DNA of 64,000 nt from Candidatus Borrarchaeum yapensis (lineage in GTDB: Archaea; Asgardarchaeota; Sifarchaeia; Borrarchaeales; Borrarchaeaceae): assembly GCA_016840515.1 (NCBI GenBank), contig JAEOSF010000002.1:47918-111917 (forward strand), given 5' to 3'. Shown here one piece after another: positions 29,497-56,321 of the stretch (position 1 is its first letter; every line of letters starts with the position of its first letter). The position numbers were made by a program, and so were the translations under genes. Below the pieces are notes generated by a model. The model searched no databases. It saw nothing but the letters and a program-made list of their open reading frames with translations, and was not told the DNA's origin.

Positions 29497-30065
29497 TAGC
29501 TAAGCAAGAAAGCACCACAGCTTCAGCGTGGTGATGAATTGCGGTAGTGTGTGTGTTCACTTTCATCATGGGGTCTCCTTAATACTTAAATAGTGGTGTG
29601 CCTCTCATACAGTGATGACTATCACGAGGACGGCAGGCAGGGATCGATACAAAACTATGGCTCTTGGTAGCATCACAGCTCATACCATGTTATCCGCTGC
29701 ATTCGGAGGGATCATACGCACACTTGCAGATAAGGTGCATACTCCGATTAAAGTCGAGAGGTGGTTTGCTTCCACCAAAACCTGTTCGCGTTGCGGGAAT
29801 ATCCGGAAAATAGGATTGGATGAACGAGTCTATATCTGTCCGGTCTGTGGTTTGGTGATGGACAGAGATCATAATTCAAGTATTAACTTAGAACACGAAG
29901 GGTTAACACAACAAGTGGTACCTACGGGACGTAGGGATGTTAAGCCTGTGGAGACTGAATCCTCTACTGTGATATCGCTGGAATACCTAAACCGTATTCC
30001 TTATGTGACAGCAAGTTCGGTCATCGAAGCAGGAAGCCTCACTGCTTGAGCGTGAGGTAGTTCAC
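29497..30065 (+). mobile_element. IS200/IS605-family element remnant with truncated tnpB (copy C)
   Basis: Same left and right ends as copies A and B. The internal ORF is a TnpB C-terminal fragment only. Confidence 0.65.
29612..30049 (+). pseudogene. tnpB: TnpB (IS605 OrfB) C-terminal fragment: RuvC-III plus zinc finger
   Basis: WFASTKTCSRCG...YICPVCGLVMDRDHNSSINL is the canonical TnpB C-terminus. The N-terminal ~250 aa are missing. Confidence 0.65.
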
Positions 30066-32583: not shown

Positions 32584-33963
32584 TCAGGGTGGGGTAGTTG
32601 ACCCTCCTTTTACAATCCGGTTCGTGATCTCAATAAGATACGAATCAAGCTCTTGAATTGAATTTATTTCTCCGTCAGCATACTCCACTATCTGGAGTTC
32701 ATTATCACAATAGATAGTTGGCTTTCCCATCTGGAACGCAGTCTTAGTCGCTACATCAACAGCCGAAGCCTTTAATTCAGTCACAAGGACATCCGCTTGA
32801 GTTAATTTCTTAAGATCTTCCTTCAATTTAGCGCGATCTGAGAGATGCACACTTGTTCCTAATATATTACAATTGTAATTTTGCTCTAAATAGTTAACTA
32901 CAATTTTCATAACTTCAATAGGCATTGTTGTAGCATAAAACACAGTTTTATTCTTTATATTACCTAAAACTTTAGGACGAAAAGTTGTACAACATATCTT
33001 AATCTTTGGATTTATCTCTTTTATAGTGGTGCAGATTTCTTGAATCTTATCATCAGTCGCAAGGGGAGTTTCGCAATTTGTTATAATCGCAAGTTCGGAA
33101 AGTTTTATCCTATAGGGATTCAAAACATCTTTAACGTTAGAAAGAGGTTGTTGTGCACCGATTACAATAATAAAGGACTGCGCCATCACTGGAGGAATAC
33201 TTGGTCCGCTACCTTCGGCAATGATTAAATCGATAGTTAATTTTTCAGCGGTTCTGACTCCTTCTTCTACATTATCCAGGAAGGGTGCCCCTGCTAACCC
33301 TCCTGCACATCTTCTGCAACCTATCGTTATAACTCTACTAGTTAGAGCATCTTCCCAATAATCACTGGCTGCGTGTTTGCCCTGTCGCGCAACTTTAAGA
33401 AGAGATTCCGCGTTGACAATTAATTGGTCGCCTCGGATCAATTCAGGAGTTTCTGGACCTCCTCTGCCCATAGTAAGTATGCAAGGTGTCCATTTCGTTT
33501 CTTTGATAACACGTGCAATGTAACCTGCAACAGCTGTTTTCCCAACTCGTTTTCCTGTACCAATAACACTTATTACAGGTTTTCTAGCTTCTATAAAGTC
33601 AATGGGGATGAACTGAAAGTCTGCGCCTTTATAACTACATCCTTCAAATAAAGCGGCGCACGCAAAATCCATTCGATCTAGAGAAGTCACTACGGGTTCA
33701 CCACTAAGATCGAAGACAGAATTGATCTTGCGCTGCTTTATTATTTTGTGTAAAACTGCCTCGAAATTACTCTTTTTGTCAAGAAAATAAATGGGTAAGT
33801 TCAGATATTGCTCAATTTCATTAAGATCTCCAATTTTTTCGGTGCCGCCTAGAAATAACGCAGCAACAACTTCTTGATCTGGCAAATTATTTAACTTTTC
33901 TATCGCTGCTTTCGTGACAGGCAAGTAGTGTTCCCCATCAATGCAGGCAAGTATTTTTTCCAT
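32584..33963 (-). CDS. cpgS: Cyclic 2,3-diphosphoglycerate synthetase
   Basis: 459 aa. N-terminal CIDGEHY motif and P-loop GTGKRVGKT. Size and pairing with 2PGK are both consistent. Confidence 0.5.
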   Translation of the reverse strand: MEKILACIDGEHYLPVTKAAIEKLNNLPDQEVVAALFLGGTEKIGDLNEIEQYLNLPIYFLDKKSNFEAVLHKIIKQRKINSVFDLSGEPVVTSLDRMDFACAALFEGCSYKGADFQFIPIDFIEARKPVISVIGTGKRVGKTAVAGYIARVIKETKWTPCILTMGRGGPETPELIRGDQLIVNAESLLKVARQGKHAASDYWEDALTSRVITIGCRRCAGGLAGAPFLDNVEEGVRTAEKLTIDLIIAEGSGPSIPPVMAQSFIIVIGAQQPLSNVKDVLNPYRIKLSELAIITNCETPLATDDKIQEICTTIKEINPKIKICCTTFRPKVLGNIKNKTVFYATTMPIEVMKIVVNYLEQNYNCNILGTSVHLSDRAKLKEDLKKLTQADVLVTELKASAVDVATKTAFQMGKPTIYCDNELQIVEYADGEINSIQELDSYLIEITNRIVKGGSTTPP

Positions 33964-34915: not shown

Positions 34916-37879
34916 TTACTCGATTGGCATTCTATACGCCGCTTCATTGTTTGCGCCACAAGCCGGGCAAATTACAGTTTCCATGACATTATACGGTTCA
35001 CCACAATCCATACACAATTGTGGGGCTGTTTCGTCTACTGAGATCTTGTAACCAAGTCCATCCTTTTTCTCTGCTTTTAGGTTAAATCCCGTCCCAGGTT
35101 CTTTTATTGGTGGAACGAAATCTTTTTCCCTATAAAAGTATTTAATATCAATTGCACTGCCGGTTCCAACATTCTTAGTACTTGCACATCCGTAAGGATA
35201 TCTAAAGAAGTTAAAGTCTGTTGCTGCCATTTGTTTTCCACAGATCCCTTTAGCTGGACCTCCAACATCGACAAAATATTTCCCAAGCACTTTTGTACGA
35301 GCCTTCATTCCATCAGTGGTTTTTGCTTCTCTCTCCTTTGCGCCCTTAGTCTTTAATCCTAAAGAAGAGCCAATTGAGTCAAACGCTCGACCGATACCTG
35401 ATTTCGCTGCACCAATTGCATATTTAATTACCGCACTCGCTGCTCCCGCACCCTCGAATTGAGCTACAAATGCGTCATATGTAGCCTTACGGAGAACCGA
35501 AGGTATGGGTGTGTGGAAGTTCGTTGCAAACGTGACCTTAATCATTATTTCTTCATCCAGTTCTGGTACCCTGTACCAAAGTTCGCGCCAATGATAATCT
35601 GAGATGATCCACTCTGGCTTCCCCGTATTCGCATTGACCCACAACTCGATCCTTTCCCAGTCCTCGTGCTCCAATCCTTTACTGCCAACGGTAAGCTCAA
35701 AGGGCCACCAAAAGAGGTTTCTAAAGACCCAATACTGGTCCCCCTTAAGCCAGACAGGCGCATCTTCCTGAGATTGCATTGGAAAAGCTTCGGGTCTCTT
35801 ATCATACCAATAGAGGTTCATGTTTTCTGAGCCAAGCACTTGAACAGATCCTATGCCTAAGATGAAGTTTATGAGAAGCATTATATATAGGCCGTTAGTT
35901 TCGAATCGGATCAGATCTTCGTTAGCTCCTGTAACAATGAACGTCCCCAGACTGTTAACCGTGTAGGTTATGTACAGCATGATTACGACAATGATTAAAG
36001 CTACGATTAAGAAGCTAGATGAAGCTTCTGGTCGCTCGTTTACTGTTTGTTCGAATAAGCCGTACCACTTGAACATAAAGAAGAACAAGAAGATAAGAAC
36101 AACTATCTGGGTAACTGCAAGTCCTAGAAATTCGATTCCACCGCCAATTACTGTGAAATTAACGTAGATACTATAGCCTACAAGTACCAATGTGACAGCC
36201 AACAGCACATAAATGATTGGACGCATCGCGGTAACTAACGTACGCTGAAATACTAGATTCATTGGACTCCATACTGGGGAATATTTGTCAGCTAGTACCT
36301 TTGGATCATAAAAGTCTCCGATGTGCTTATTATTGTATTCAACTCTTGCTTTTTCTGAACCCTTAATCGGCTGGACGCCTATCGATTTCAAAGGCTTTGG
36401 AACCGTCTCCCAGTGCTTACTTCTGTCCATGTAGCGAAAAGAAACGTATTCACCGAATCTTGGTAAGTCAGTCTGTTTTAGATCAAGGTCTAAAATTTGA
36501 TCCAAATCTAACTTGAATTGTTCAGCGTTCTCAAATTCGTTTTCTTTGTTCTTTCCGTGAATGAAGTAGTTTGACCATAAGTCGCGGAACAGATATGCCG
36601 TTCTGAATCTCTTTGCTAAATCTCCTTCCTCAGGAATCTCTGTATATGCCATTGTAAAGTAGTTTCCAACTGAACCCCATAGACCACCCCATAGAGCTGC
36701 TAATACAAGTAGCAAACCATTGACCACATAGATGGATATCTCTGGAGGTGAATAGCGAATCAATGGAACAAATGGAAAGCCAATAAGCCCGATGATCTCA
36801 AGAGATGGATCGCCTTGAATGATTGCACTGAAATATGAAAGGCTAGTAGTGATACCAATGAGCAGTCCTTGCCAGAAATGGGCACTACGAAAAGCTATGG
36901 GTGTTACAATGAGTGACGGAACGAGAAATATCAGCACCTGACGTAAAACAATGTTTTGAACACCGCTTGGGAAATATATGGCGATGGCAAAATACGATAC
37001 GAGTGCTCCAAGTAACGCAACGATCCATAGAGCTAACACTAGTTTCATCTTGATAAAGTCTTGAAACGAATTCATGATATATTTTGTGAAGTTAAACTGG
37101 TTGAAAAATCCTCCAGCAAAGCCAGAAATTATGAATAGAACTAAGATTTGAATGTACCATCCGTCAGGGGGTATAACTTCCGTATCCCAGAAAAATAGCC
37201 ACAAACCGACAAGCGTACCAATCGCACCGAACACACCAACAATTATTCCTTCGACAAGCCCAGTTTCTACAGGCATAATTGTTCCAAGGATTATTGCAAG
37301 TAGCCCTGCAACAGCGAAAACCACTGCCCAGACATAAGGACCTATAAGTACTGGATACTCAAGTGACCCAGTAAATACAGCAGGAGGTAGCAGAAGACCT
37401 ATTAATACAAAGATGACTCCACATGCAAAGAAATCAATTGCCCATTGCCACATTTCATAGCCGCCGATGACTTTATCTTTAAGTGGAGAATTGAGGAGTG
37501 CAAATACCCCTGCAATAACAACTAATACAACTGCTGTGATAAAAGGTCTGTAGAGGACAAATTCAAGGGTGCTAACTACCATTAACCCCGCTGTAATTAG
37601 TACAATGACGCCCAAGGTACGCAAAATGTTTTTCCATTTTTCGGCTTCTGGCAAAAGCGTCATTACGAAGACGATGAGCGGTAGTGCAAGCGTGACATTA
37701 TATGCGAAATCGGGGAAAGTAAATATATCGTAGTAGGGCCAATTTTCTGCGTAAAGACCAATGAAGAATAGGTAATCAATTATGTTGTCTAGCCATGCAA
37801 ACCATGCGACAAACGCTACTATAATGTATACAATTATTTTTCTTCCTGAAAAGTACGATGAAACTCCCATTTTCGTCAA
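34916..37879 (-). CDS. Large polytopic membrane protein (987 aa) with C-terminal cytoplasmic domain and zinc ribbon
   Basis: About 20 predicted TM helices in the first ~650 aa. C-terminal CMDCGEPYNVMETVICPACG zinc ribbon. Oligo-T terminator downstream. Confidence 0.5.
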   Translation of the reverse strand: MTKMGVSSYFSGRKIIVYIIVAFVAWFAWLDNIIDYLFFIGLYAENWPYYDIFTFPDFAYNVTLALPLIVFVMTLLPEAEKWKNILRTLGVIVLITAGLMVVSTLEFVLYRPFITAVVLVVIAGVFALLNSPLKDKVIGGYEMWQWAIDFFACGVIFVLIGLLLPPAVFTGSLEYPVLIGPYVWAVVFAVAGLLAIILGTIMPVETGLVEGIIVGVFGAIGTLVGLWLFFWDTEVIPPDGWYIQILVLFIISGFAGGFFNQFNFTKYIMNSFQDFIKMKLVLALWIVALLGALVSYFAIAIYFPSGVQNIVLRQVLIFLVPSLIVTPIAFRSAHFWQGLLIGITTSLSYFSAIIQGDPSLEIIGLIGFPFVPLIRYSPPEISIYVVNGLLLVLAALWGGLWGSVGNYFTMAYTEIPEEGDLAKRFRTAYLFRDLWSNYFIHGKNKENEFENAEQFKLDLDQILDLDLKQTDLPRFGEYVSFRYMDRSKHWETVPKPLKSIGVQPIKGSEKARVEYNNKHIGDFYDPKVLADKYSPVWSPMNLVFQRTLVTAMRPIIYVLLAVTLVLVGYSIYVNFTVIGGGIEFLGLAVTQIVVLIFLFFFMFKWYGLFEQTVNERPEASSSFLIVALIIVVIMLYITYTVNSLGTFIVTGANEDLIRFETNGLYIMLLINFILGIGSVQVLGSENMNLYWYDKRPEAFPMQSQEDAPVWLKGDQYWVFRNLFWWPFELTVGSKGLEHEDWERIELWVNANTGKPEWIISDYHWRELWYRVPELDEEIMIKVTFATNFHTPIPSVLRKATYDAFVAQFEGAGAASAVIKYAIGAAKSGIGRAFDSIGSSLGLKTKGAKEREAKTTDGMKARTKVLGKYFVDVGGPAKGICGKQMAATDFNFFRYPYGCASTKNVGTGSAIDIKYFYREKDFVPPIKEPGTGFNLKAEKKDGLGYKISVDETAPQLCMDCGEPYNVMETVICPACGANNEAAYRMPIE

Positions 37880-38302: not shown

Positions 38303-39814
38303 TTGGCAAAAAACTGGAGGACTAAAACATTGCCGGCATGTCCTAGTTGCAGAAGAACACTAAGAGAAGGTCTAAGATTCTGTACTTATTGTGGCTCACC
38401 ACTTGTTCCACGCTTTAGAAAAACTCCAATAAAGCTGACATCAACGAAATTTATTGAAGAAGGTAAGAAAAAAGAAAAATTGGCTAATTACATTTGTGTA
38501 CACTGCGGAAAATTCGCTAACTTTTACTGTCCTGAACATGGCATGTTTTGCAAGAATTGTGCATCTAAAAAAATTTCATTCTGTCCATCTTGTGGGATAG
38601 GATTTCAATCAGCGCCACCTAATGCTAAATGCCAGACTATATTAAATTCATTGTGCCCTCAATGTGGTAAGCAACTGGTTCTTGCGCAATTTCAAAAAGG
38701 AGGCGTCTTTGACTCATCTGCTCCTGATTATAAAGTTATGTGTGTAGCTTGTGGGTGGGAGTCTTCAAAATCAAAGCCAAAAATCATTGAAGATAGCATG
38801 GCTGACATATTTAATCAACTAAATAAGAAAAAGTTGGTTAAAGCTGGAGCCCATCCTGTTTTATGCAGCAGAAATCTAGTGAATACCGGTTGTCCTGTTT
38901 GTAATCGTATGGGAATCCCTATTCTTAGGGTATTGCCGGGTATAAATGTTGAAACTGTTGAGGCAATTAAAGTTGGAAATAAGATCCCACTTGTTTTGAC
39001 TATAACAGCAAAATTACCAACTGAGTTGAAATTACACTTCCCTATTTTGAATAAAGACATTTCAGCTGCATTAAAGAAAGATGAAAGTAAAGAAATAGAA
39101 TTAGAACTGCCAGCAGGTGAAGTTGGTATATTTTCGATACGTGCCCAAGCTACTATAACTGCAGGGAATTTTCAACTAACATCTACAGATGTCAATCTCA
39201 CGCCAATATTCGTTCTACCTAACATTGAGATAGAAAGAGAAGCTAAGGCGTTATATATTGACCATGAAGGGCTTATTTCGGTAGATATCCGTAATAAATC
39301 AGATTTCGAAGTTACTAATATTCAGGTCAAAACAGATTTTCCGTCTGAATTTAAAGAAGGAAAAGGTAATGGGAAGCAAATAGAGAGAATTCGTCCTGGT
39401 ACATATAGAGCCATTGACTTCAAGGTTACACCAACAGTTGGTGGATTGTATTCCTTAAATCCCACTAAGGTTCTTTTTAATGCCCCTAAAATCTTTAAAT
39501 CTCAAAAATTTGTTATTTACAGCGAGCGACTTACTATTGAGATCGGTAGAGCATATATGGATATCGTAGATCCAGTTACGGCTGCTGCGGCTTCAGCAGG
39601 GACTAATTCCAAACCAACTGGAATGATCATTAAGGAGAGAATTATCGAGAAGAAAGAAGAAGTCGTATTAATAAAGACCGTTCCCACAAGCTGTTCAGAA
39701 TGTGGTGCGCCTTTGAGCGAGGAAAGCGTGGATTGGGTAGGACCCGAGAAATTCAAGTGTCCAACTTGTGGAAGCACATTAAGTATGAAACTTGAAAGAC
39801 AAAAGTCGGTTTAA
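38303..39814 (+). CDS. Multi-zinc-ribbon protein with predicted beta-sandwich domains
   Basis: At least six CxxC...CxxC pairs in the first 200 aa and another at the C-terminus. The middle region shows an alternating beta pattern. Confidence 0.5.
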   Translation: MAKNWRTKTLPACPSCRRTLREGLRFCTYCGSPLVPRFRKTPIKLTSTKFIEEGKKKEKLANYICVHCGKFANFYCPEHGMFCKNCASKKISFCPSCGIGFQSAPPNAKCQTILNSLCPQCGKQLVLAQFQKGGVFDSSAPDYKVMCVACGWESSKSKPKIIEDSMADIFNQLNKKKLVKAGAHPVLCSRNLVNTGCPVCNRMGIPILRVLPGINVETVEAIKVGNKIPLVLTITAKLPTELKLHFPILNKDISAALKKDESKEIELELPAGEVGIFSIRAQATITAGNFQLTSTDVNLTPIFVLPNIEIEREAKALYIDHEGLISVDIRNKSDFEVTNIQVKTDFPSEFKEGKGNGKQIERIRPGTYRAIDFKVTPTVGGLYSLNPTKVLFNAPKIFKSQKFVIYSERLTIEIGRAYMDIVDPVTAAAASAGTNSKPTGMIIKERIIEKKEEVVLIKTVPTSCSECGAPLSEESVDWVGPEKFKCPTCGSTLSMKLERQKSV

Positions 39815-39848: not shown

Positions 39849-41009
39849 ATGGAAAGGCTTAGAAAAATTAAGAATTATTTCAAATGGATTAAGCCTGGCT
39901 GGAGGAAGGAGATGCGAGAAAATTATGATCGTGTCTTAAAAGAAAAGATGTTAAATAGTTTGAAAAACTCAGATGAGCTATTAGGAGAGATCCAGAAAGC
40001 TTCGGTAGACTTAGGCAATGATGATGTATTAAAGTTAGGCGAAAGATTAAGAAAGAAATTGAACAGATTTCAACAAGACGTTGAGTTGATGGCCCCAATT
40101 TTTGAGGTCGAAAAACTCCATAAACAAAGCAAGACTGCTGATGGCCCAACAAAGTTTGATGTTACGTTAGAATCAGAGACATTCAAAAACCTTGTTGGAA
40201 TAGATATGCTTACTTTATTTGAAGTAGATTCAATAACTGAAATTTTTCGAGAAACTTTACTTCCTAAGGTAGAAGATGGTAATGCTGAAGACGCAAAGAA
40301 AGCTCTAAGAGAAATAAAGAGTGAGATGGATGATGTAGTGAGTCTTTTCAAAAAGAGGAATGATTTATTGTTAGGTGTGACCCCAGCAGATCACATTTAC
40401 CAAGCAATACCTGGTAGATGGCATGATGTATACAAAAATATCGAAGAAATCCTTGACGAAAAATTATGGCAAATGAAACATCGAGAAAAGGACAAAGTCA
40501 GAGAAGTTAGAAAAGCAATGGAAGACGAAAAAGCAAAAAAACCAAGACTTTTTGGCAAAGGCGACTATTATGAGAAACTTGGTGAAGAAATTCTTAAACT
40601 CAAAGATATGATCAAAAATGAAACAGGAGGCATCTGTTCGCTAGCAGATCTTTACATGAAAATGCGTGAGCGTAGATTAGACATAGAATTCAATGTAAAT
40701 GATATTGAAAAAGCAGTTAAAAAATTAGATAAAGCAGGAATGATAGCTAATATGCATGTATTACCTTCAGGCTTAAAACTAATAGAATTTGTGCCAGTTG
40801 GCATGACAGAAGATTCACGAACAGTACTTGAGATTGCTTCAACCTCTAATGGCTATATTTCCCTTGAAGATCTGATGATAAAAACACAATGGGACAATGA
40901 ACGCGTAATGCGTGCTTTACAAACCCTTGAGCAAGAAGGAGTTACCCGACGTGATTCAAGTTATGCTGGAGGCACAGCTTGGTATGTACCAAGCCTATAT
41001 AAAGGATAA
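39849..41009 (+). CDS. Coiled-coil protein with C-terminal tandem winged-helix, EAP30 (ESCRT-II Vps22/Vps36)-like
   Basis: C-terminal GGICSLADLYMKMRER...DIEKAVKKLDKAGMIANMHVLPSGLKLIEF (WH1) then ISLEDLMIKTQWDNERVMRALQTLEQEGVTRRDSSYAGGTAWYVPSLY (WH2), with an ending reminiscent of the ...YWFPSLF motif of Vps22/36. Confidence 0.45.
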   Translation: MERLRKIKNYFKWIKPGWRKEMRENYDRVLKEKMLNSLKNSDELLGEIQKASVDLGNDDVLKLGERLRKKLNRFQQDVELMAPIFEVEKLHKQSKTADGPTKFDVTLESETFKNLVGIDMLTLFEVDSITEIFRETLLPKVEDGNAEDAKKALREIKSEMDDVVSLFKKRNDLLLGVTPADHIYQAIPGRWHDVYKNIEEILDEKLWQMKHREKDKVREVRKAMEDEKAKKPRLFGKGDYYEKLGEEILKLKDMIKNETGGICSLADLYMKMRERRLDIEFNVNDIEKAVKKLDKAGMIANMHVLPSGLKLIEFVPVGMTEDSRTVLEIASTSNGYISLEDLMIKTQWDNERVMRALQTLEQEGVTRRDSSYAGGTAWYVPSLYKG

Positions 41010-41026: not shown

Positions 41027-42598
41027 ATGTCATCGATTAAAGAATGGTTTAGAACTAGGAAAGTAGACAAGGATGTTAAAAGAGTAGCAGACAAAGGATT
41101 GGACGCTGATGAGGTAATTGAGAAGGAATGGGGTAGAGATCGATATACATACATTTGGAACCACCAAGTATATCCTGGAATAATACATCGACTTACGTAT
41201 GAAGATATTATGAATGCTCCTCCAATTTATGATATGCATTGTCCGGGATGTAGAAAACTAGCAGAAGCAAGGAAATGTCCAAAATGTGGAACACTTGCAA
41301 ATAAAGGACAACAATTCTGTAGAAAATGTGGAGCAGATATACCTACCGAACGAGTTTCTACAATAAAAGCAGGTCAGCCTTTCTGTAAGAAGTGTGGATA
41401 TGATGCGAGACTTCAGGAACCCATTCGAGGATTCGTTGTACGATCGTATGAAAAAGCATTGTTTTATAAACAGGGAGCTTTGGTAGGAGAATTAAGTGCA
41501 GGAGTATATGATTTAATACCAGAAGAAGAGAGAAAAATTGAAGAAAAAGCGAGAGAGCGTGCACAAGAATTAGAAGCGTCAGGGAGACTGGACAAAGCAT
41601 GGAGGAAAGAGGATTCTAAAGGACTACTTCACAAAATCTTTAGCGGAATGGATGTACGAAAGCTCTACAGTGCACTAGTTGGCACTGAAATCATATGGGT
41701 AAATACACGGGAATATAAACTTTCCTGGGGAGTTCCAAAACGTATCTATACACAAGATAAGGTGAAGATTGGAGCCTCAGGCACGGCGTACGTCAAAATT
41801 AGTGAGCCTAAACGCCTCGTTCAAAACTTTATTGGTGGTAAGGAGAAATTAGCGCCTGATGAGTTTGATAACTGGGCAAAGGACTCCATGAGAGGAATTG
41901 TAACTCAAACATTATCCACCTATCCATTAGAAGATGTGTTTTCAAATCGCGAAGGTATTTCCACTAAAGCAAAAGTAATCGCTGAGAATACATTTGGTGA
42001 TTGGGGAGTCCAGTTAGCGCGACTTGAAATAGCAACCATCGCTGGAGCTGAAGAGTACGAAGAATTAGTTATACAAAAAACTGCCAAGGCGAAAATGATA
42101 AGTTCCGAAACAGAACTTGCGATGCTTGAAAAAGAAAAGGAGTTAAAACTAGCAGAATTAGAAGCTATGAAAGCAAAATATGAAGCACTCTCATCAACTG
42201 CTGAAGATGAAGCACTTGCAAGAATAGAAGCCGAAAAGTACGCTACAATGAAAGGTATTGACGCAGAGTTGTATTTAAGAGCCAAAGAAGCGGGTATAAG
42301 CGTTGAGGAACTTGTAAAAGCTGAAGGATATCGAGAACTAGGTAAGAAAGGTGTCTCAATTGATGCATCCCCAACAATAGTCACCGGAGCTGGTGTTGTT
42401 CCAGTCGCAGGTCCATCAACGATTCCAACCAAGTCTACTGATGCAGATAAAATTAAAAAAGAGATAGGTGAGCGCCAACAGAGAATAGAAAAAGCAGATG
42501 ATCTCCTCCTTGATGGAAAGATTTCCGAGGAGAAGCACTCAGATTTAGTTATACGCCTGAAGAAGGAGATTGCAGAGCTCAAAGCACAGTTAGGTTAA
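41027..42598 (+). CDS. Zinc-ribbon plus SPFH/band-7 (flotillin/stomatin-like) protein with C-terminal coiled coil
   Basis: N-terminal CPGCRK...CPKCG...CRKCG...CKKCG ribbons. Central SPFH-like block (GFVVRSYEKALFYKQGALVGELSAGVYDLIP...) followed by an EA-rich heptad coiled coil. Confidence 0.5.
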   Translation: MSSIKEWFRTRKVDKDVKRVADKGLDADEVIEKEWGRDRYTYIWNHQVYPGIIHRLTYEDIMNAPPIYDMHCPGCRKLAEARKCPKCGTLANKGQQFCRKCGADIPTERVSTIKAGQPFCKKCGYDARLQEPIRGFVVRSYEKALFYKQGALVGELSAGVYDLIPEEERKIEEKARERAQELEASGRLDKAWRKEDSKGLLHKIFSGMDVRKLYSALVGTEIIWVNTREYKLSWGVPKRIYTQDKVKIGASGTAYVKISEPKRLVQNFIGGKEKLAPDEFDNWAKDSMRGIVTQTLSTYPLEDVFSNREGISTKAKVIAENTFGDWGVQLARLEIATIAGAEEYEELVIQKTAKAKMISSETELAMLEKEKELKLAELEAMKAKYEALSSTAEDEALARIEAEKYATMKGIDAELYLRAKEAGISVEELVKAEGYRELGKKGVSIDASPTIVTGAGVVPVAGPSTIPTKSTDADKIKKEIGERQQRIEKADDLLLDGKISEEKHSDLVIRLKKEIAELKAQLG

Positions 42599-48719: not shown

Positions 48720-49055
48720 CTAACGTTGTTTTTTCACTTTATAGGGATATCTGCTGTAACTTTTGCATTTATAGCATGTTATAACCATGTGTGGCTCACG
48801 TCCGTTACGTAATCTTATTTGACAGGTTACACCCGGAATTAATAATGAATGACAATGTTTGCAAATTTGCCAACGTTGAGATCGTGGAATCCTAATCTTA
48901 TGTCGCATACCAATCCGTAAGGCAAGTTGTACATATCTTTGTGCCAGATTATTATCTGTACGAAATACTGCCTTAGCTAATTCCAGAAGATATTCGATCC
49001 TTTCGCGTGCGATTTTTTTTATGGAGCGATTATTTTTTCTTTTACGACGTTTCAT
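48720..49055 (-). CDS. rnp4: RNase P protein component 4 (Rpp21)
   Basis: Zinc ribbon CKHCHSLLIPGVTCQIRL...ITCYKC and a basic N-terminal helix IARERIEYLLELA. The start is chosen at the internal Met (MKRRKRK). The track ORF extends to 49130. Confidence 0.65.
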   Translation of the reverse strand: MKRRKRKNNRSIKKIARERIEYLLELAKAVFRTDNNLAQRYVQLALRIGMRHKIRIPRSQRWQICKHCHSLLIPGVTCQIRLRNGREPHMVITCYKCKSYSRYPYKVKKQR

Positions 49056-49193
49056 CACGATCTCACAAAGACTTTTGTAAAAGGAGATATGAATCCTAAA
49101 TTCTATAAAATTATTCCCTTGTGTGGTCAAGCTGCAATAAAGACCGAAAATCTGTTGTATCTTAAAGATTTCCTTATTATTCGAGGATAAAAA

Positions 49194-49898
49194 ATGAAAG
49201 AACCTATTATATACTTCATTTTAGCAGAATCCGCACTAGAATCAATCCCTATTGAATTTAGAAATCATGCTAAATTTCGAAGATATGCTAAAAAACAAAA
49301 AAAGTCCCCAGCAACCATTGTTTTTGATAAATCAATTCACTCATTTTTTATAGATAATCCAAAAGCATATGAAAAAAGAGGTCGTCCTGATATTGTGCAT
49401 GTCTCACTTCTATCAATTTTAGGCACACCTCTATGTAAATTAGGATACCTAAAGATCTTTATACATACTTTGAATAACAATGTTATCCAGGTAGATCCCA
49501 ATGTAAGACTTCCGCGCAATTATGTCCGCTTTTCGGGGTTAATTAGTCAATTGTTCATAATGGGAAAAGTACCTCCACAAGGACCCAGTTTACTTACTAT
49601 TAATGAAATGACTCTAAAAGAACTTCACGATGAAATAAAGCCAAAACATACAATTTTATTCTCTGAAACAGGCAAAGAGGTTGAATTAAACAAATTAATG
49701 AGAAAGGTGGTTGAAATCAAACCACTGGCAATTATTGTAGGTGGATTCCCACATGGTCAATTTGAAAAGAAAACATTGGAAATTGCAGATGAAGTAGTTT
49801 CTATAAGCAAAATATCACTGGATGCTCATATTGCTATATCTAGAGTACTCTATAGTTACGAAATAGCATCAAAAATAGATTTTAACAATGATTTTTAG
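49194..49898 (+). CDS. nep1: Ribosomal RNA small-subunit methyltransferase Nep1 (SPOUT)
   Basis: GRPDIVHVSLL is the Nep1 signature. Confidence 0.75.
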   Translation: MKEPIIYFILAESALESIPIEFRNHAKFRRYAKKQKKSPATIVFDKSIHSFFIDNPKAYEKRGRPDIVHVSLLSILGTPLCKLGYLKIFIHTLNNNVIQVDPNVRLPRNYVRFSGLISQLFIMGKVPPQGPSLLTINEMTLKELHDEIKPKHTILFSETGKEVELNKLMRKVVEIKPLAIIVGGFPHGQFEKKTLEIADEVVSISKISLDAHIAISRVLYSYEIASKIDFNNDF

Positions 49899-50101: not shown

Positions 50102-50208
50102 GCGGCTGTAGTCCAGCCTGGCTAAGACTTCGGCCTGCCACGTCGATGACCCGGGTTCAAAAAAATTGAGGTATATGACCCATTTTGAGATTCCCGGCAG
50201 CCGCACCA
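50102..50208 (+). tRNA. tRNA-Gly(GCC) with ~30-nt intron in the T-loop (59/60); CCA encoded
   Basis: Acceptor GCGGCTG/CAGCCGC, anticodon arm TCGGC-CTGCCAC-GTCGA. T-stem CCGGG/CCCGG encloses 37 nt instead of 7. Confidence 0.65.
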
Positions 50209-50267
50209 TTTTAGATCGGCATATATCTTGGAATAAAATTGGGTTTTATAGCTTTACAAATTAATGC

Positions 50268-50404
50268 GCGGCCGTAGTCTAGCGCGGTTTAGGACTCTGC
50301 CGTATATTCAAGAGGAAATGCGGAGGACGCCTTCCAAGTCAGTAACCCGGGTTCAAAAAGTAGGAACATATCGTTTCTATTGGGAGTTCCCGGCGGCCGC
50401 ACCA
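50268..50404 (+). tRNA. tRNA-Gly(UCC)-like with two insertions (anticodon-stem region and T-loop); CCA encoded
   Basis: Acceptor GCGGCCG/CGGCCGC, D-arm GTCT...GGAC, loop CTTCCAA (anticodon TCC). A 29-nt insert precedes the loop and the T-loop is 37 nt. One C-U mismatch in the anticodon stem. Confidence 0.45.
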
Positions 50405-50461
50405 ATCTCCTTTTATTAATTATTTATAGCATTATTCTAAGCTTAGAAGGGGAAATAAAAA

Positions 50462-50860
50462 ATGATAGAAAAACTTGAAATTAAAACCCATAAAAAAGTT
50501 GATCTAATTGATATTACGAGTCAAATCAAGAAAGTAATTGTAAAATCAGGAGTTCAAGAAGGCATTTGTATTATTTTTGTACCACATACAACGGCAGGCG
50601 TTACCATTAATGAAAATGCAGATCCAGATGTTATTCGCGATATAATCGAATCAATAAATAAAATCGTTCCATTTGACGCCACATATAAACATAGTGAAGG
50701 CAATTCTCCAGCTCATATTAAGTCATCACTTTTTAGTCCAGATCGTACAGTAATCATAGAAAATGGTGCTCTTTCTCTAGGAATTTGGCAGGGAATATAT
50801 TTCTGCGAATTTGATGGACCGCGAAATAGAAAATTATTTGTAAAAGTACTGGGAGGATAA
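50462..50860 (+). CDS. yjbQ: YjbQ/UPF0047 family protein
   Basis: GICIIFVPHTTAGVTINENADPDV...HIKSSL matches the UPF0047 signature. Confidence 0.7.
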   Translation: MIEKLEIKTHKKVDLIDITSQIKKVIVKSGVQEGICIIFVPHTTAGVTINENADPDVIRDIIESINKIVPFDATYKHSEGNSPAHIKSSLFSPDRTVIIENGALSLGIWQGIYFCEFDGPRNRKLFVKVLGG

Positions 50861-50904
50861 TATTTCAAGCGATAAATATCATATGGCATTTTTAAAAAGA
50901 AATA

Positions 50905-51007
50905 TGGTGCGGCTGGCAGGATTTGAACCTGCGACAACCGGATCTTCAGTCCGGCGCTATAGGTATTTAAAAGATTGTTTAATTCTCCCTGTCTAAGCTA
51001 CAGCCGC
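50905..51007 (-). tRNA. tRNA-Phe(GAA) with 25-nt intron in the D-arm; CCA encoded
   Basis: Reverse complement GCGGCTG TA GCTT AGACAGGGAG A[25 nt]AGC G CCGGA CTGAAGA TCCGG TTGTC GCAGG TTCAAAT CCTGC CAGCCGC ACCA. Confidence 0.65.
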
Positions 51008-51127
51008 CTGTTTAGTCCATTACTTTTTCGACTTAGACAGAAAAGTCTGGTGTTGTATATAAATTTTTGCACCTAAAACTCAGTTTCTTAATAAAGTCCT
51101 GTATCATAATAAAATTAGATCGTTGAC

Positions 51128-51580
51128 TCAGCGGGTTCTCTCTTCAAATTGTGCTGCACTAAATAGAAGCACTAAAGCTGCAACAACCACTAAAAACAAA
51201 AACTGGAAAACAGGATCAATAAAGGAAAGGTACGGGATTTTGCGAATATAAAGAATCACCGCAAAAAGCATATAGATTCCTAGATAGATTGTGATGGAGA
51301 TAAAAGATCCACCTAACGTTGGATAAAGTATTTGACTTTCGCTAAGGTTACTTCTACGGGCAATTCCTTCGGTGAACAGAATTCCTGCTCCAGTAACTGC
51401 TAGACCGCCTCCAATAAGACTTGGAATAAGTATAGATACGCTTTGAATTGCTAAAATTTGGCTAGCGTGATACAGAGTCGGAAGTTGAGCTACTAGAGAA
51501 AGCCCAAAAATAGTAAATACTACACCTACAAGCCTATAATGCTTCCATGGATAGATTCGTGACATAACTTCAAACACCAC
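51128..51580 (-). CDS. Small integral membrane protein (4 TM)
   Basis: Hydrophobic, 150 aa, no motif. Confidence 0.35.
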   Translation of the reverse strand: MVFEVMSRIYPWKHYRLVGVVFTIFGLSLVAQLPTLYHASQILAIQSVSILIPSLIGGGLAVTGAGILFTEGIARRSNLSESQILYPTLGGSFISITIYLGIYMLFAVILYIRKIPYLSFIDPVFQFLFLVVVAALVLLFSAAQFEERTR

Positions 51581-51622
51581 TATAAAAAAGTGGAAATGGA
51601 AATTGAAATAAAGAAATGCATC

Positions 51623-52075
51623 TTACTCCAATTTGTCAGCATATTTTTGCTGTTCTTCTTCGATCCATTTTGTAATCGCGTCTTGGTCTGAGCCTTTTAT
51701 GAGGGGTGCCAGATCGGCATCTAGAGATGCGGGCTCAACGAGAAGAAGCCATCCTTCGCCGTAAGGATCATCATTAACTAAGGAAGGATTGTCTTTAACT
51801 GCAGGATTCGCTTCGGCGATAGTCCCAGCGACTGGTGATTTCAAAGGACCCACCCATTTCCCCGTCTCCAGTGTTCCAAATGTTTTTCCAACATTTGTAG
51901 CTTTGCCTGCGGGGCGGAGTCTCACAAAAAGGATCTTACCTGCTATCTTCTGCCCAAAGGCATCCATACCAACTTTAACTTTATCTTCTTCTTGTTTCAA
52001 CCAAATATGATGCTCTGGATAATAATATAGATCTTCAGGAAATTCAAGATCGCCAATTTTCAAAAAGATCACCAA
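51623..52075 (-). CDS. gcvH: Glycine cleavage system H-like lipoyl-domain protein
   Basis: HIWLK...VKVGMDAFG...LETGKWVGPL...GEGWLLLVE architecture of GcvH. Confidence 0.55.
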   Translation of the reverse strand: MVIFLKIGDLEFPEDLYYYPEHHIWLKQEEDKVKVGMDAFGQKIAGKILFVRLRPAGKATNVGKTFGTLETGKWVGPLKSPVAGTIAEANPAVKDNPSLVNDDPYGEGWLLLVEPASLDADLAPLIKGSDQDAITKWIEEEQQKYADKLE

Positions 52076-52215
52076 CTTAAAATTTTATTTACCTTGTCCC
52101 CTTATTGTTTTTCGACTATTTAAAAATCTAGTGGATTTTAGTGTGGTCTATATTCATCTAACGATTAATAATTCTCATTTCCTGAATTATTCGATCAAAA
52201 ACAGTTAGGATAAGA

Positions 52216-52353
52216 TGGTGGGCGGGGAGAGACTTTCAGAAAGAGAGGTTTTCATCCATTTCCTTTGAACTCTCGACCTACGAACCCATACATCACGTGT
52301 ATGAATACTCCGCGACGTCAACGCGGCGTCATAACCAACTAGACCACCCGCCC
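52216..52353 (-). tRNA. tRNA-Val(GAC) with two ~30-nt introns (variable region 45/46 and T-loop 59/60); CCA encoded
   Basis: Reverse complement GGGCGGG TG GTCT...GAC G CCGCG TTGACGT CGCGG AG[30 nt]GTC GAGAG TTCAAA[31 nt]T CTCTC CCCGCCC ACCA. Confidence 0.55.
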
Positions 52354-52387
52354 GTATACATTAATTACACGAGGGTGTTTTTATTAA

Positions 52388-52525
52388 TGGTGGACCGGGA
52401 GGGATTTTCACGAATTGGCAGTCACCCCAATTCCTTTTGAACCCTCGGGTCGGCGAAGAATAGAAAATCTATTCTGCTCCTCCGCGATGCCAACGCGGCG
52501 ATCTTCCAGGCTGAGCTACCGGCCC
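52388..52525 (-). tRNA. tRNA-Ala(GGC) with two ~30-nt introns (variable region and T-loop); CCA encoded
   Basis: Reverse complement GGGCCGG TA GCTC AGCCTGGAA GATC G CCGCG TTGGCAT CGCGG AGG[30 nt]CC GAGGG TTCAAA[31 nt]T CCCTC CCGGTCC ACCA. Confidence 0.55.
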
Positions 52526-54401: not shown

Positions 54402-56321
54402 TTAAACAAGGCGAAGTGTTTCAAGATTAGTTGGGGAGTAAGTTTCAGTCCTTAATATCTTTTTAAGTGACTTTGCTAGACCTATACACTTTGATTTTTC
54501 GCCGTGACATGTTATAACTTTCTCAGGTCTTGGCGTAACTTGTTTTGTATAGTTTATTAATTGTCTTCTGTCAGAATGGCCTGAAAAGCCCTCTACAGTT
54601 TCAATATTGAGGTCAACTTTAACTATCTGTGGTTTAGAATTCCTTCCTCCAGTCATGGGAATTTCTTTTTGACCCTTCTGTATCCTTCTTCCTAAAGTTC
54701 CTTCGATTTGGTATGATACAAAAATGACCGTGTTTTTTGGGTCATGTGCCAGATATCTGAAATAGTCGACCGAAGGACCACCTGTAAGCATTCCAGAGGT
54801 TGCCAGTATAACACATGGTTCACCCTCTACTATATCAGGACGCGCATTTGAAGAGTCTACTTGGGTGAAACAATCTGCTAGGAATGGGTTTAGACCATAA
54901 TGGAAAATTTTATCACGTAAATCATGGGCAAGATATTCTGGATGTGTTGTATGGATGGCTGTGGCTTCAGAAATCATACCTTCAATGAAGATCGGAACTT
55001 CTTCCATGATTTTGTGCCTTATTGCCTCTTCTAATAAAACAATTATTTCTTGAGCCCTACCTACTGCTAGAACAGGTATTAGAACCTTTCCTTTTTGTTG
55101 AATGGTTCTATTAATCGCATTAATCAATCGTCTTTCAGATTCACGTCGAGAAGGCAAGTTGTCATCAACATTTCCATAAGTACTTTCTAAAATAAGAGTT
55201 TCAAGCCTAGGAAAATGTGATGTGGCAGCTTCTAGTAATCTTGATTTAGAAAATTTAAAATCGCCCGTATAAGCGACATTGTATAAGCCGTCTCCTATGT
55301 GGAGATGTGATATAGAACTTCCAAGTATATGTCCTGCATTATGGAGCGTTAATCTTACGTCAGGGCTGATATCTGTCACTTCCCCATAATCAAGAGGGAT
55401 AGTATTGAGCACAACGTTTTTCACATCTTTTTGCTTGTATGGAGAGAGTTTTCCCTCGCGTTCAGCAACATCTAGGTAATCGAGTTGCAACAAGGTCATT
55501 AAATTACGAGTAGCCTTGGTACAATAAACGGGACCTCGATAGCCATATTTATATAGAAAAGGAACAAATCCACAATGATCTAAGTGAGCATGAGTAATGA
55601 TAACGGCATCTAATTCGTCAAGATCAAATTCTGGCATGTCTAATCGAGGAAAAGAATTACCTTGGCTAGATGTCCCAACATTGATACCGCAATCAATTAG
55701 AACATTGCTTTCTGCAGTTTGTACAAAGATACATGTTCTACCAACTTCTCTAAAGCCTCCCAATGCTGTAAAACGCAACCAGCCGTTTTGCATTAGAACA
55801 GATCTATGAATTCGTTGACCAATTGTTTTTAAAATCCCTCTTCGTTTATCGCTGTCTTTTTGCAGAGCGTGTCTTAGTTGTAAAACAATACGGGATTGGA
55901 TAGGAGGGGTTCGTATAACAGAAGGACGCCAAAATATTTTACGTGTGATTTCCTTGAGTGTAGTTCCATTGCGGCCAATAACTAATCCTGGCTTTTTTGC
56001 TTCAATAATAACTTCTCCAACATTGTCATCGAAATTGATGGAACTGATATCGGCTTCTTCTGGAACTATCTTTTTGATTTCTGCTTCAGCCTGTTGCGGA
56101 GGCATTCGTAATGCAGGGTCAGATCGAATAACCAACCGTTTTCGTAAACGTTTAGCAAGTCCCTTTATGATATCGCCATTATTTAACAAAACTTTTGGAT
56201 TTCGTGAATAAATAGCAATCTCAGGACCCTCAAATTCAATATCAGAAACACTTGCGTCTTTAGGAATACTTTCTAGAATTGTTTGTTTTATCTTGTTAAA
56301 TTCATCGTTCAAAAACATCAA
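54402..56321 (-). CDS. KH-domain beta-CASP ribonuclease aCPSF1 (FttA)
   Basis: N-terminal KH repeats with HAHLDHCG metallo-beta-lactamase motifs. 639 aa. Confidence 0.8.
   Translation of the reverse strand: MMFLNDEFNKIKQTILESIPKDASVSDIEFEGPEIAIYSRNPKVLLNNGDIIKGLAKRLRKRLVIRSDPALRMPPQQAEAEIKKIVPEEADISSINFDDNVGEVIIEAKKPGLVIGRNGTTLKEITRKIFWRPSVIRTPPIQSRIVLQLRHALQKDSDKRRGILKTIGQRIHRSVLMQNGWLRFTALGGFREVGRTCIFVQTAESNVLIDCGINVGTSSQGNSFPRLDMPEFDLDELDAVIITHAHLDHCGFVPFLYKYGYRGPVYCTKATRNLMTLLQLDYLDVAEREGKLSPYKQKDVKNVVLNTIPLDYGEVTDISPDVRLTLHNAGHILGSSISHLHIGDGLYNVAYTGDFKFSKSRLLEAATSHFPRLETLILESTYGNVDDNLPSRRESERRLINAINRTIQQKGKVLIPVLAVGRAQEIIVLLEEAIRHKIMEEVPIFIEGMISEATAIHTTHPEYLAHDLRDKIFHYGLNPFLADCFTQVDSSNARPDIVEGEPCVILATSGMLTGGPSVDYFRYLAHDPKNTVIFVSYQIEGTLGRRIQKGQKEIPMTGGRNSKPQIVKVDLNIETVEGFSGHSDRRQLINYTKQVTPRPEKVITCHGEKSKCIGLAKSLKKILRTETYSPTNLETLRLV

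Follow-up and report, generated by a model that had tools for sequence, protein, structure and literature searches.

Predicted non-canonical introns in a cluster of five tRNA genes from an Asgard archaeon of the class Borrarchaeia

It is established that the bulge-helix-bulge (BHB) introns of archaea are removed through cleavage by the splicing endonuclease EndA and ligation by an RtcB-type ligase. Within the Asgard archaea, 92-95% of the tRNA genes of Atabeyarchaeia and Freyarchaeia bear introns, often at non-canonical sites, and over half are multi-intron genes (Valentin-Alvarado et al. 2024, PMC11291895). An earlier survey reported an Asgard-wide (alpha-beta)2 EndA with a broad-specificity L1 loop, together with incomplete tRNA sets that point to hidden disrupted genes (Kaneta et al. 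2018, PMC5829648). At position 59/60, in the T-loop, the tRNA-Cys intron of ARMAN-2 is cut in vitro by that organism's own epsilon2 EndA, and a mini-helix mimicking this intron served as substrate in assays of the Aeropyrum (alpha-beta)2 enzyme (PMC3239211, PMC5829648). Here we describe five tRNA genes (Gly-GCC, Gly-UCC, Phe-GAA, Val-GAC and Ala-GGC) at 50102-52525 of a contig segment from Candidatus Borrarchaeum yapensis, an Asgard archaeon whose class we call Borrarchaeia; all coordinates refer to this 64,000-nucleotide (nt) segment, the whole stretch of DNA analysed, hereafter the window. Our literature search found no paper linking Borrarchaeia with tRNA introns. We consider it very probable that these five genes are functional and that their eight inserts are archaeal BHB introns, at non-canonical positions already known, because removal of the inserts restores cloverleaves, their junctions have BHB geometry, one of them is exactly present or absent between orthologues, and they evolve faster than the exons. 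An earlier note on this DNA had likewise taken the inserts for non-canonical introns of multi-intron genes, and the same evidence bears it out.

The five genes all encode the terminal CCA and are arranged as follows, with intron numbers as predicted here.

50102-50208, plus strand: tRNA-Gly(GCC) gene, encoded CCA, one intron; called by ARAGORN as Gly(gcc) after in-silico splicing
50268-50404, plus strand: tRNA-Gly(UCC) gene, encoded CCA, two introns; called by ARAGORN after in-silico splicing
50905-51007, minus strand: tRNA-Phe(GAA) gene, encoded CCA, one intron; called by ARAGORN as Phe(gaa) after in-silico splicing
52216-52353, minus strand: tRNA-Val(GAC) gene, encoded CCA, two introns; called by ARAGORN after in-silico splicing
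52388-52525, minus strand: tRNA-Ala(GGC) gene, encoded CCA, G3:U70 pair, two introns; called by ARAGORN after in-silico splicing

Each gene is over-long by 26-61 nt. The acceptor stem of 7 base pairs (bp) is perfect in four of them and contains the G3:U70 pair in Ala. The exons of each gene are contiguous and colinear within 103-138 nt, which rules out split or permuted tRNA genes. The locus recurs with 98.7-100% identity in 10 independent contigs from ENA, JGI and Logan and is thus not an assembly artefact.

The cloverleaf dictates the position of eight inserts of 26-31 nt, with three of the five genes carrying two. In Gly-GCC, Gly-UCC, Val and Ala, the 5-bp halves of the T-stem (CCGGG/CCCGG twice, GAGAG/CTCTC and GAGGG/CCCTC) stand 37-38 nt apart, and each of these four inserts is preceded by TTCAAA and followed by a single T, which places it at 59/60. 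The other four lie at 29/30 (Gly-UCC), 22/23 (Phe), 45/46 (Val) and approximately 46/47 (Ala), and none lies at the canonical 37/38, the 7-nt anticodon loop being unbroken in all five genes. Much of this had been claimed in the earlier note and holds: the four T-loop inserts with their spacing and flanks, a second insert of about 30 nt in the variable region of Val and Ala (30 nt in each), and the absence of any insert at 37/38. All five genes are interrupted, as it stated, but the Phe insert that it put at 25 nt, the lower end of its 25-31-nt range, measures 26 nt; similarly, the second insert of Gly-UCC exists but sits inside the 5' strand of the anticodon stem rather than next to the stem. 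The predicted introns are listed below.

50162-50191, plus strand: Gly-GCC intron at 59/60, 30 nt, AAAATTGAGGTATATGACCCATTTTGAGAT
50300-50328, plus strand: Gly-UCC intron at 29/30, in the 5' strand of the anticodon stem, 29 nt, CCGTATATTCAAGAGGAAATGCGGAGGAC
50358-50387, plus strand: Gly-UCC intron at 59/60, 30 nt, AAGTAGGAACATATCGTTTCTATTGGGAGT
50959-50984, minus strand: Phe intron at 22/23, in the 3' strand of the D-stem, 26 nt, AATTAAACAATCTTTTAAATACCTAT
52278-52307, minus strand: Val intron at 45/46, in the variable region, 30 nt, TATTCATACACGTGATGTATGGGTTCGTAG
52233-52263, minus strand: Val intron at 59/60, 31 nt, GGAAATGGATGAAAACCTCTCTTTCTGAAAG
52449-52478, minus strand: Ala intron in the variable region, most likely at 46/47, 30 nt, AGCAGAATAGATTTTCTATTCTTCGCCGAC
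52405-52435, minus strand: Ala intron at 59/60, 31 nt, AGGAATTGGGGTGACTGCCAATTCGTGAAAA

Removal of the inserts makes these genes visible to standard tools. ARAGORN with default settings finds no tRNA in the whole raw window, and once the eight inserts are deleted in silico it calls five canonical tRNAs with the expected anticodons, so that this check, suggested in the earlier note, came out in its favour. The spliced tRNAs have canonical arms, G18 G19, a TTCAAAT T-loop, variable loops of 4-5 nt and, in Ala, the intact G3:U70 pair; their predicted exon-exon junctions include GGGTTCAAATCCCGG, as well as CCGGGTTCAAATCCCGG for Gly and GAGAGTTCAAATCTCTC for Val. Rfam scores Phe alone above threshold (61.7 bits, with a 33-nt insertion in the D-arm) and gives only sub-threshold partial matches for Val and Ala. 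The T-loop pattern by itself (5-bp stem, TTCRAN, 15-60 nt, stem) was observed 110 times compared with 103 in shuffled sequence, which is not above chance, and significance therefore rests on the architecture of the whole genes. When the window was scanned for a 7-bp acceptor stem with NCCA and an adjacent T-arm, an insert being allowed or not, the combination of a TTCAAA loop and G+C-rich stems appeared only in these five genes; about 13 matches without tRNA-like sequence are expected in shuffled sequence.

For the Phe and Gly-UCC inserts, the boundaries follow from what the excision leaves behind. Removal of the Phe insert gives a canonical D-arm, GCTTAGACAGGGAGAGC, with G18 G19, and an alternative excision of 24 or 26 nt at gene positions 17/18 was ruled out because G18 G19 would be lost. 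For Gly-UCC, 29/30 is the sole boundary that yields a pairing anticodon stem. The spliced stem would be CTGGC/GTCAG, and an uninterrupted tRNA-Gly(UCC) of Sifarchaeum has the same 5' strand, CTGGC, with GCCAG as its 3' strand. Because this uninterrupted gene has the predicted CTGGC strand, we regard the 29/30 boundary as settled. A 27-nt excision at a strict BHB was considered for this gene and ruled out, since it would leave 2 extra nt.

At each junction we applied BHB geometry as published, that is, two 3-nt bulges separated by a 4-bp helix, each bulge being cut after its second nucleotide, and only at junctions already fixed by the cloverleaf. The geometry is consistent with what is known of introns at 37/38, where the first two anticodon bases lie within the central helix (PMC4090602). 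The central helix has at least three of four pairs in all eight introns and all four pairs in four of them, the inner helix has at least 3 bp in six of the eight, and the outer helix of each of the four T-loop introns is the 5-bp T-stem. At random positions of the window, a central helix with at least three of four pairs together with an inner helix of at least 3 bp has a probability of 0.009 per site. For the T-loop introns, T54 T55 C56 A57 form the exon side of the central helix, and the intron side (TGAG, GGGA, TGAA and TGAA) ends 2 nt before the 3' splice site. Gly-GCC 59/60 shows the full hBHBh' motif, with an outer helix of 5 bp, a central helix of four pairs out of four (TTCA with TGAG) and an inner helix of 4 bp, and Val 59/60 shows the same motif with values of 5, 4/4 and 4. 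Gly-UCC 59/60 has an outer helix of 5 bp, a central helix of 3/4 (TTCA with GGGA) and an inner helix of 9 bp. In Ala 59/60 the outer helix is again 5 bp and the central helix 4/4 (TTCA with TGAA, which does not vary among 6 orthologues), followed by a 7-bp hairpin, the inner helix starting with a mismatch. Away from the T-loop, Val 45/46 has an HBh' motif (central helix 4/4, inner helix 9 bp), Gly-UCC 29/30 a relaxed BHB (central 3/4, outer 3, inner 5), and the Ala variable-region intron, at approximately 46/47, a relaxed motif as well (outer 3, central 3/4, inner 9 of 10 pairs), while Phe 22/23 has a central helix of 3/4 and an inner helix of 3. Minimum-free-energy folds recover the T-stem and the intron hairpins, with z-scores of -3.7 for the T-arm plus intron of Gly-UCC 59/60 and -3.2 for Ala 59/60.

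These features suggest how the genes might be expressed. Each would be transcribed as a precursor of 103-138 nt, in which exon and intron at each junction could adopt the BHB fold just described or a relaxed form of it lacking one outer helix. In the T-loop introns, the T-stem would serve as the outer helix and T54 T55 C56 A57 would pair with TGAA, TGAG or GGGA. EndA would then cut both bulges, and an RtcB-type ligase would join the exons into canonical tRNAs of 75-77 nt. We infer from the literature that EndA cleavage, ligation and the (alpha-beta)2 enzyme type would also apply to the B. yapensis genome. The relaxed-specificity endonuclease proposed in the earlier note would be in line with these publications. 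Since the conserved T-loop would supply half of the splice-site helix, this arrangement may explain why 59/60 is favoured.

Comparison with related genomes is consistent with this notion. We aligned orthologues from Ca. Borrarchaeum weybense, the metagenome-assembled genome (MAG) DZ3M.366, the Borrarchaeota MAG Yap75 and two further metagenome contigs; across the tRNA region, identity to the window is 93.8% over 4.5 kb for B. weybense, about 91% for DZ3M.366 and about 75% for Yap75. Across the orthologues, exons are 98-99% identical, introns 79-90% and the 10-nt flanks 69-98%, and introns accumulate substitutions approximately 10 times faster than exons. The Val 59/60 insert is exactly absent from Yap75 and from one metagenome contig (L051), which read GAGAG TTCAAAT CTCTT. 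The Gly-GCC intron is kept in three orthologues, with changes confined to its hairpin. Paired changes also occur: a Val T-stem pair that spans the intron switches from A-U to U-A in two orthologues, two pairs of the Phe inner helix (A-T and T-A) are both G-C in Yap75, two pairs of the Ala 59/60 hairpin are altered on both sides, and the Val intron hairpins show compensatory changes as well. For Val 45/46, 91% of cells are paired across 6 orthologues versus 17-46% for slid controls, and over the predicted Val and Ala helices in 6 orthologues the values are 88-96% versus 17-61%.

Three further observations concern these genomes. The Gly-UCC 29/30 intron is identical at 28 of 29 positions between the window and Yap75, where the flanks are 69% and neighbouring genes about 75% identical, and its conservation seems to exceed the apparent need of its helices alone. 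In the D-stem of tRNA-Ala(GGC), a C11-U24 mismatch (GCTC...GATC) is present in the window and in four of five orthologues, the canonical GAGC being found only in Yap75. Finally, MAG DZ3M.366 carries a G+C-rich insertion of about 225 bp directly upstream of tRNA-Phe (L025:2150-2374), which neither the window nor B. weybense has and which matches no Rfam family at the gathering threshold; a small mobile element or a structured RNA is one possibility.

Several results weigh against the interpretation of the inserts as BHB introns and have to be set beside those above. Four of the eight introns have one mismatch in the central helix. The earlier note had proposed folding the junctions for BHB motifs, and here the outcome is divided: the geometry fits all eight, but the minimum-free-energy folds do not display the two 3-nt bulges, and the z-scores of the junction folds range from +1.1 to -3.7 and are modest for half of the junctions. 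Folding energy is thus weak support and insufficient alone. The covariation is not significant with 6 close sequences, 38-78 of 500 shuffles reaching the score in three of four tests, and the fourth test showed no covariation at all. No EndA gene was found by a Pfam scan of 55 open reading frames (ORFs) of the window (all non-nested ORFs of at least 120 aa) or by tblastn with an approximate M. jannaschii query against the window and related loci (418 kb), and no RtcB gene was found in the same window and loci. Lastly, the Ala variable-region boundary is ambiguous, as a rival strict BHB would remove 22 nt and leave a variable arm of 13 nt. We favour excision of 30 nt, which at 46/47 leaves a normal 5-nt loop, AGGCC, because a variable loop of that size demands it and because the tRNA-Ala(GGC) intron of Atabeyarchaeia-2, detailed below, has the same length; the 22-nt version is less likely, and this boundary, whether 46/47 or 45/46, is less certain than the other seven.

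The inserts might instead be kept in the mature RNAs, so that the T-loops, variable arms and D-arms of the tRNAs would be enlarged. Their partial conservation (79-90%) and their stable hairpins are what one would expect of retained segments. However, a 37-nt T-loop would abolish the tertiary contacts between T-loop and D-loop, and one orthologue has a plain 7-nt loop exactly at the predicted junction. Together with a rate of change some 10 times that of the tRNA body, splice-site geometry at every junction and the splicing of same-site inserts in other archaea, this makes retention highly improbable. We judge it just as improbable that the genes are decaying pseudogenes broken by insertions, with functional copies elsewhere in the genome. 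Such a history would fit the failure of standard tRNA finders on four of the five genes, but not exons that are 98-99% identical between genomes whose flanking DNA is about 69-75% identical, nor stem changes that are compensatory and identity elements that are intact. Moreover, the same architecture occurs in all Borrarchaeia orthologues found, and in published complete Asgard genomes the intron-bearing genes are the sole copies for most isoacceptors.

Alternatively, the inserts may be footprints or ends of mobile elements, or self-splicing ribozymes, rather than BHB introns. The TnpB fragment at 29612-30049 in the window and the 225-bp insertion adjoining tRNA-Phe in the related MAG lend this some plausibility, and yet we regard it as extremely improbable. 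At 26-31 nt the inserts are far too short for group I or II introns, for which a core of hundreds of nt and an Rfam match would be expected, and they match no Rfam family, the only Rfam matches being to tRNA; group I and II self-splicing introns were rejected on these grounds. Terminal repeats and target duplications are not evident at the junctions by eye, no repeat search having been run. Similarity between introns, which we examined as a sign of transposition, is weak (z of about 3) and lies mostly at the BHB ends, and all inserts occupy established BHB intron positions. What decides among these readings in favour of BHB introns is the combination of restored cloverleaves, splice-site geometry, exact presence or absence and faster change in the introns.

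The Val 59/60 intron was also considered as a host for a box C/D guide RNA of the tRNA-Trp type, which would call for conserved C (RUGAUGA) and D (CUGA) boxes and some 12 nt of guide, as in the window it contains AUGGAUGA ... CUGA. The CUGA belongs to the BHB central helix, and the candidate was rejected because the C-like box is not conserved in B. weybense, DZ3M, L047 and L049.

A sixth gene indicates that intron use in this lineage extends further. The tRNA-Gly(CCC) gene of B. weybense (L035:2184-2405, plus strand, JAHQJS010000003.1) spans 222 nt and has orthologues in L013 and L045. ARAGORN calls it only after five excisions: 20 nt in the D-loop, 30 nt at 25/26 or 26/27, 24 nt at 37/38, 42-43 nt in the variable region and 28 nt at 59/60. 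The intron at 37/38 implies that Borrarchaeia do use the canonical site in other genes. The highest counts per tRNA gene that we found in the literature are three (PMC3239211) and four (table of PMC11291895), which the five predicted introns of tRNA-Gly(CCC) would exceed. In Yap75, a HEARO RNA (IscB/HNH-associated, 131 bits) lies about 1 kb from the tRNA-Gly(CCC) gene (L045:3249-3487, minus strand).

All six tRNA genes examined in the Borrarchaeia lineage are interrupted, and it is possible, if rather doubtful, that Borrarchaeia carry one of the heaviest tRNA intron loads known. As the near-universal TTCA already supplies one strand of the splice-site helix at 59/60, nearly every tRNA could receive an intron that closes with TGAA and 2 further nt. 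If the heavy load were real, the presence or absence of the Val T-loop intron between Borrarchaeia species would represent gain or loss still under way, and the class would offer a natural system for studying the spread of archaeal BHB introns.

The 59/60 site is used well beyond this lineage. We searched a single genome of each prokaryotic species for tRNA-Gly T-arms in which TTCAAA is followed by an insert of 20-45 nt and obtained 36 loci, 35 of them archaeal; the single match in a bacterial MAG (L019) was rejected as a chance match, with no tRNA around it. Asgard members include Borrarchaeia, Sifarchaeum, Odinarchaeia, Freyarchaeia-1 and other Promethearchaeota, and the remainder comprise many Micrarchaeota in addition to Thermoproteota, Nitrososphaerota, Altiarchaeales, Woesearchaeota and Thermoplasmatota. 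In the majority, the last 2 nt of the insert are preceded by TGAA, TGAG or GGAA.

With regard to genomic context, the genome is low in G+C (38%), the matching contigs come from estuarine-sediment metagenomes, and the aCPSF1 protein of the window has its best matches in Asgard archaea. The tRNA cluster is surrounded by RNA-processing genes (48720-49898 and 54402-56321), namely those for the RNase P subunit Rpr2/Rpp21, the Nep1/EMG1 methyltransferase and aCPSF1/FttA, and in window-identical contigs genes for LSm and ribosomal protein L37e are called just downstream of it. Elsewhere in the window, an ESCRT-II-like EAP30/Vps36 family protein is encoded at 39849-41009 (plus strand), flanked at 38303-39814 and 41027-42598 by genes for a zinc-ribbon protein and a zinc-ribbon SPFH/Band-7 protein; together these genes make up a eukaryotic-signature neighbourhood of the Asgard kind. 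A 145-aa ORF at 29612-30049 (plus strand), whose sole match is a Cas12f1-like/TnpB TNB domain, is probably a truncated TnpB remnant. Two ORFs on the minus strand, of 987 aa (34916-37879) and 459 aa (32584-33963), have no Pfam match at E <= 0.001.

Our findings leave the picture of archaeal tRNA splicing unchanged and have no direct bearing on the origins of eukaryotic introns. Their additions are modest: the gain or loss of the Val intron, a possible reason why 59/60 is favoured, and a five-intron tRNA-Gly(CCC) in a related genome. Even so, Borrarchaeia join the Asgard classes whose tRNA genes are heavily interrupted at non-canonical sites, and the cross-species comparison reveals one intron at 59/60 that was cleanly gained or lost. 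Four of the five genes escape default tRNA finders, which matters for estimates of genome completeness and codon coverage in Asgard MAGs.

Among described systems, the Thermoproteales and other Crenarchaeota (Sugahara et al. 2008; Yoshihisa 2014, PMC4090602) resemble the locus in that 22/23, 29/30, 45/46 and 59/60 all figure among the published intron positions, and in having strict hBHBh' motifs alongside relaxed HBh' or hBH ones; their non-canonical introns are associated with an (alpha-beta)2 EndA (PMC4090602). They are, in contrast, hyperthermophiles of another phylum, whereas the window has 38% G+C, comes from estuarine sediment and carries introns of a uniform 26-31 nt. With ARMAN-2 and the Micrarchaeota (Fujishima et al. 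2011, PMC3239211) the locus shares the 59/60 position and the T-stem as outer helix, and in our genome scan many micrarchaeal tRNA-Gly inserts at 59/60 end in TGAA plus 2 nt. Cleavage in ARMAN-2 was demonstrated in vitro. The ARMAN-2 enzyme is epsilon2, while the type reported for Asgard archaea is (alpha-beta)2 with the L1 loop, and the tRNA-Cys intron of ARMAN-2 is 13 nt with an hBH motif, compared with the full hBHBh' of 30-31 nt at 59/60 in Gly-GCC and Val.

Atabeyarchaeia and Freyarchaeia belong to the same superphylum and likewise have one to four short introns per gene, often at non-canonical sites. Freyarchaeia tRNA-Gly(TCC) contains a 29-nt intron at gene positions 62-90 (PMC11291895, Supplementary Data 4), the same 59/60 site as in locus L024, and Atabeyarchaeia-2 tRNA-Ala(GGC) contains a 30-nt intron at gene positions 47-76 in published tRNAscan-SE output (PMC11291895). 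In Atabeyarchaeia-2, as in the window, Gly-GCC and Gly-TCC genes lie side by side and Ala-GGC, Val-GAC and Phe-GAA genes form a cluster, and all of them contain introns. The earlier note had called this architecture unexpected in a genome with Asgard-type features, a view outdated by the 2018 and 2024 studies (PMC5829648, PMC11291895). What sets the window apart is its class, Borrarchaeia, intron sequences unrelated to those of Atabeyarchaeia and Freyarchaeia, and a T-loop intron in four of five genes with none at 37/38. The architecture is thus a new example of a published Asgard phenomenon, in a further class.

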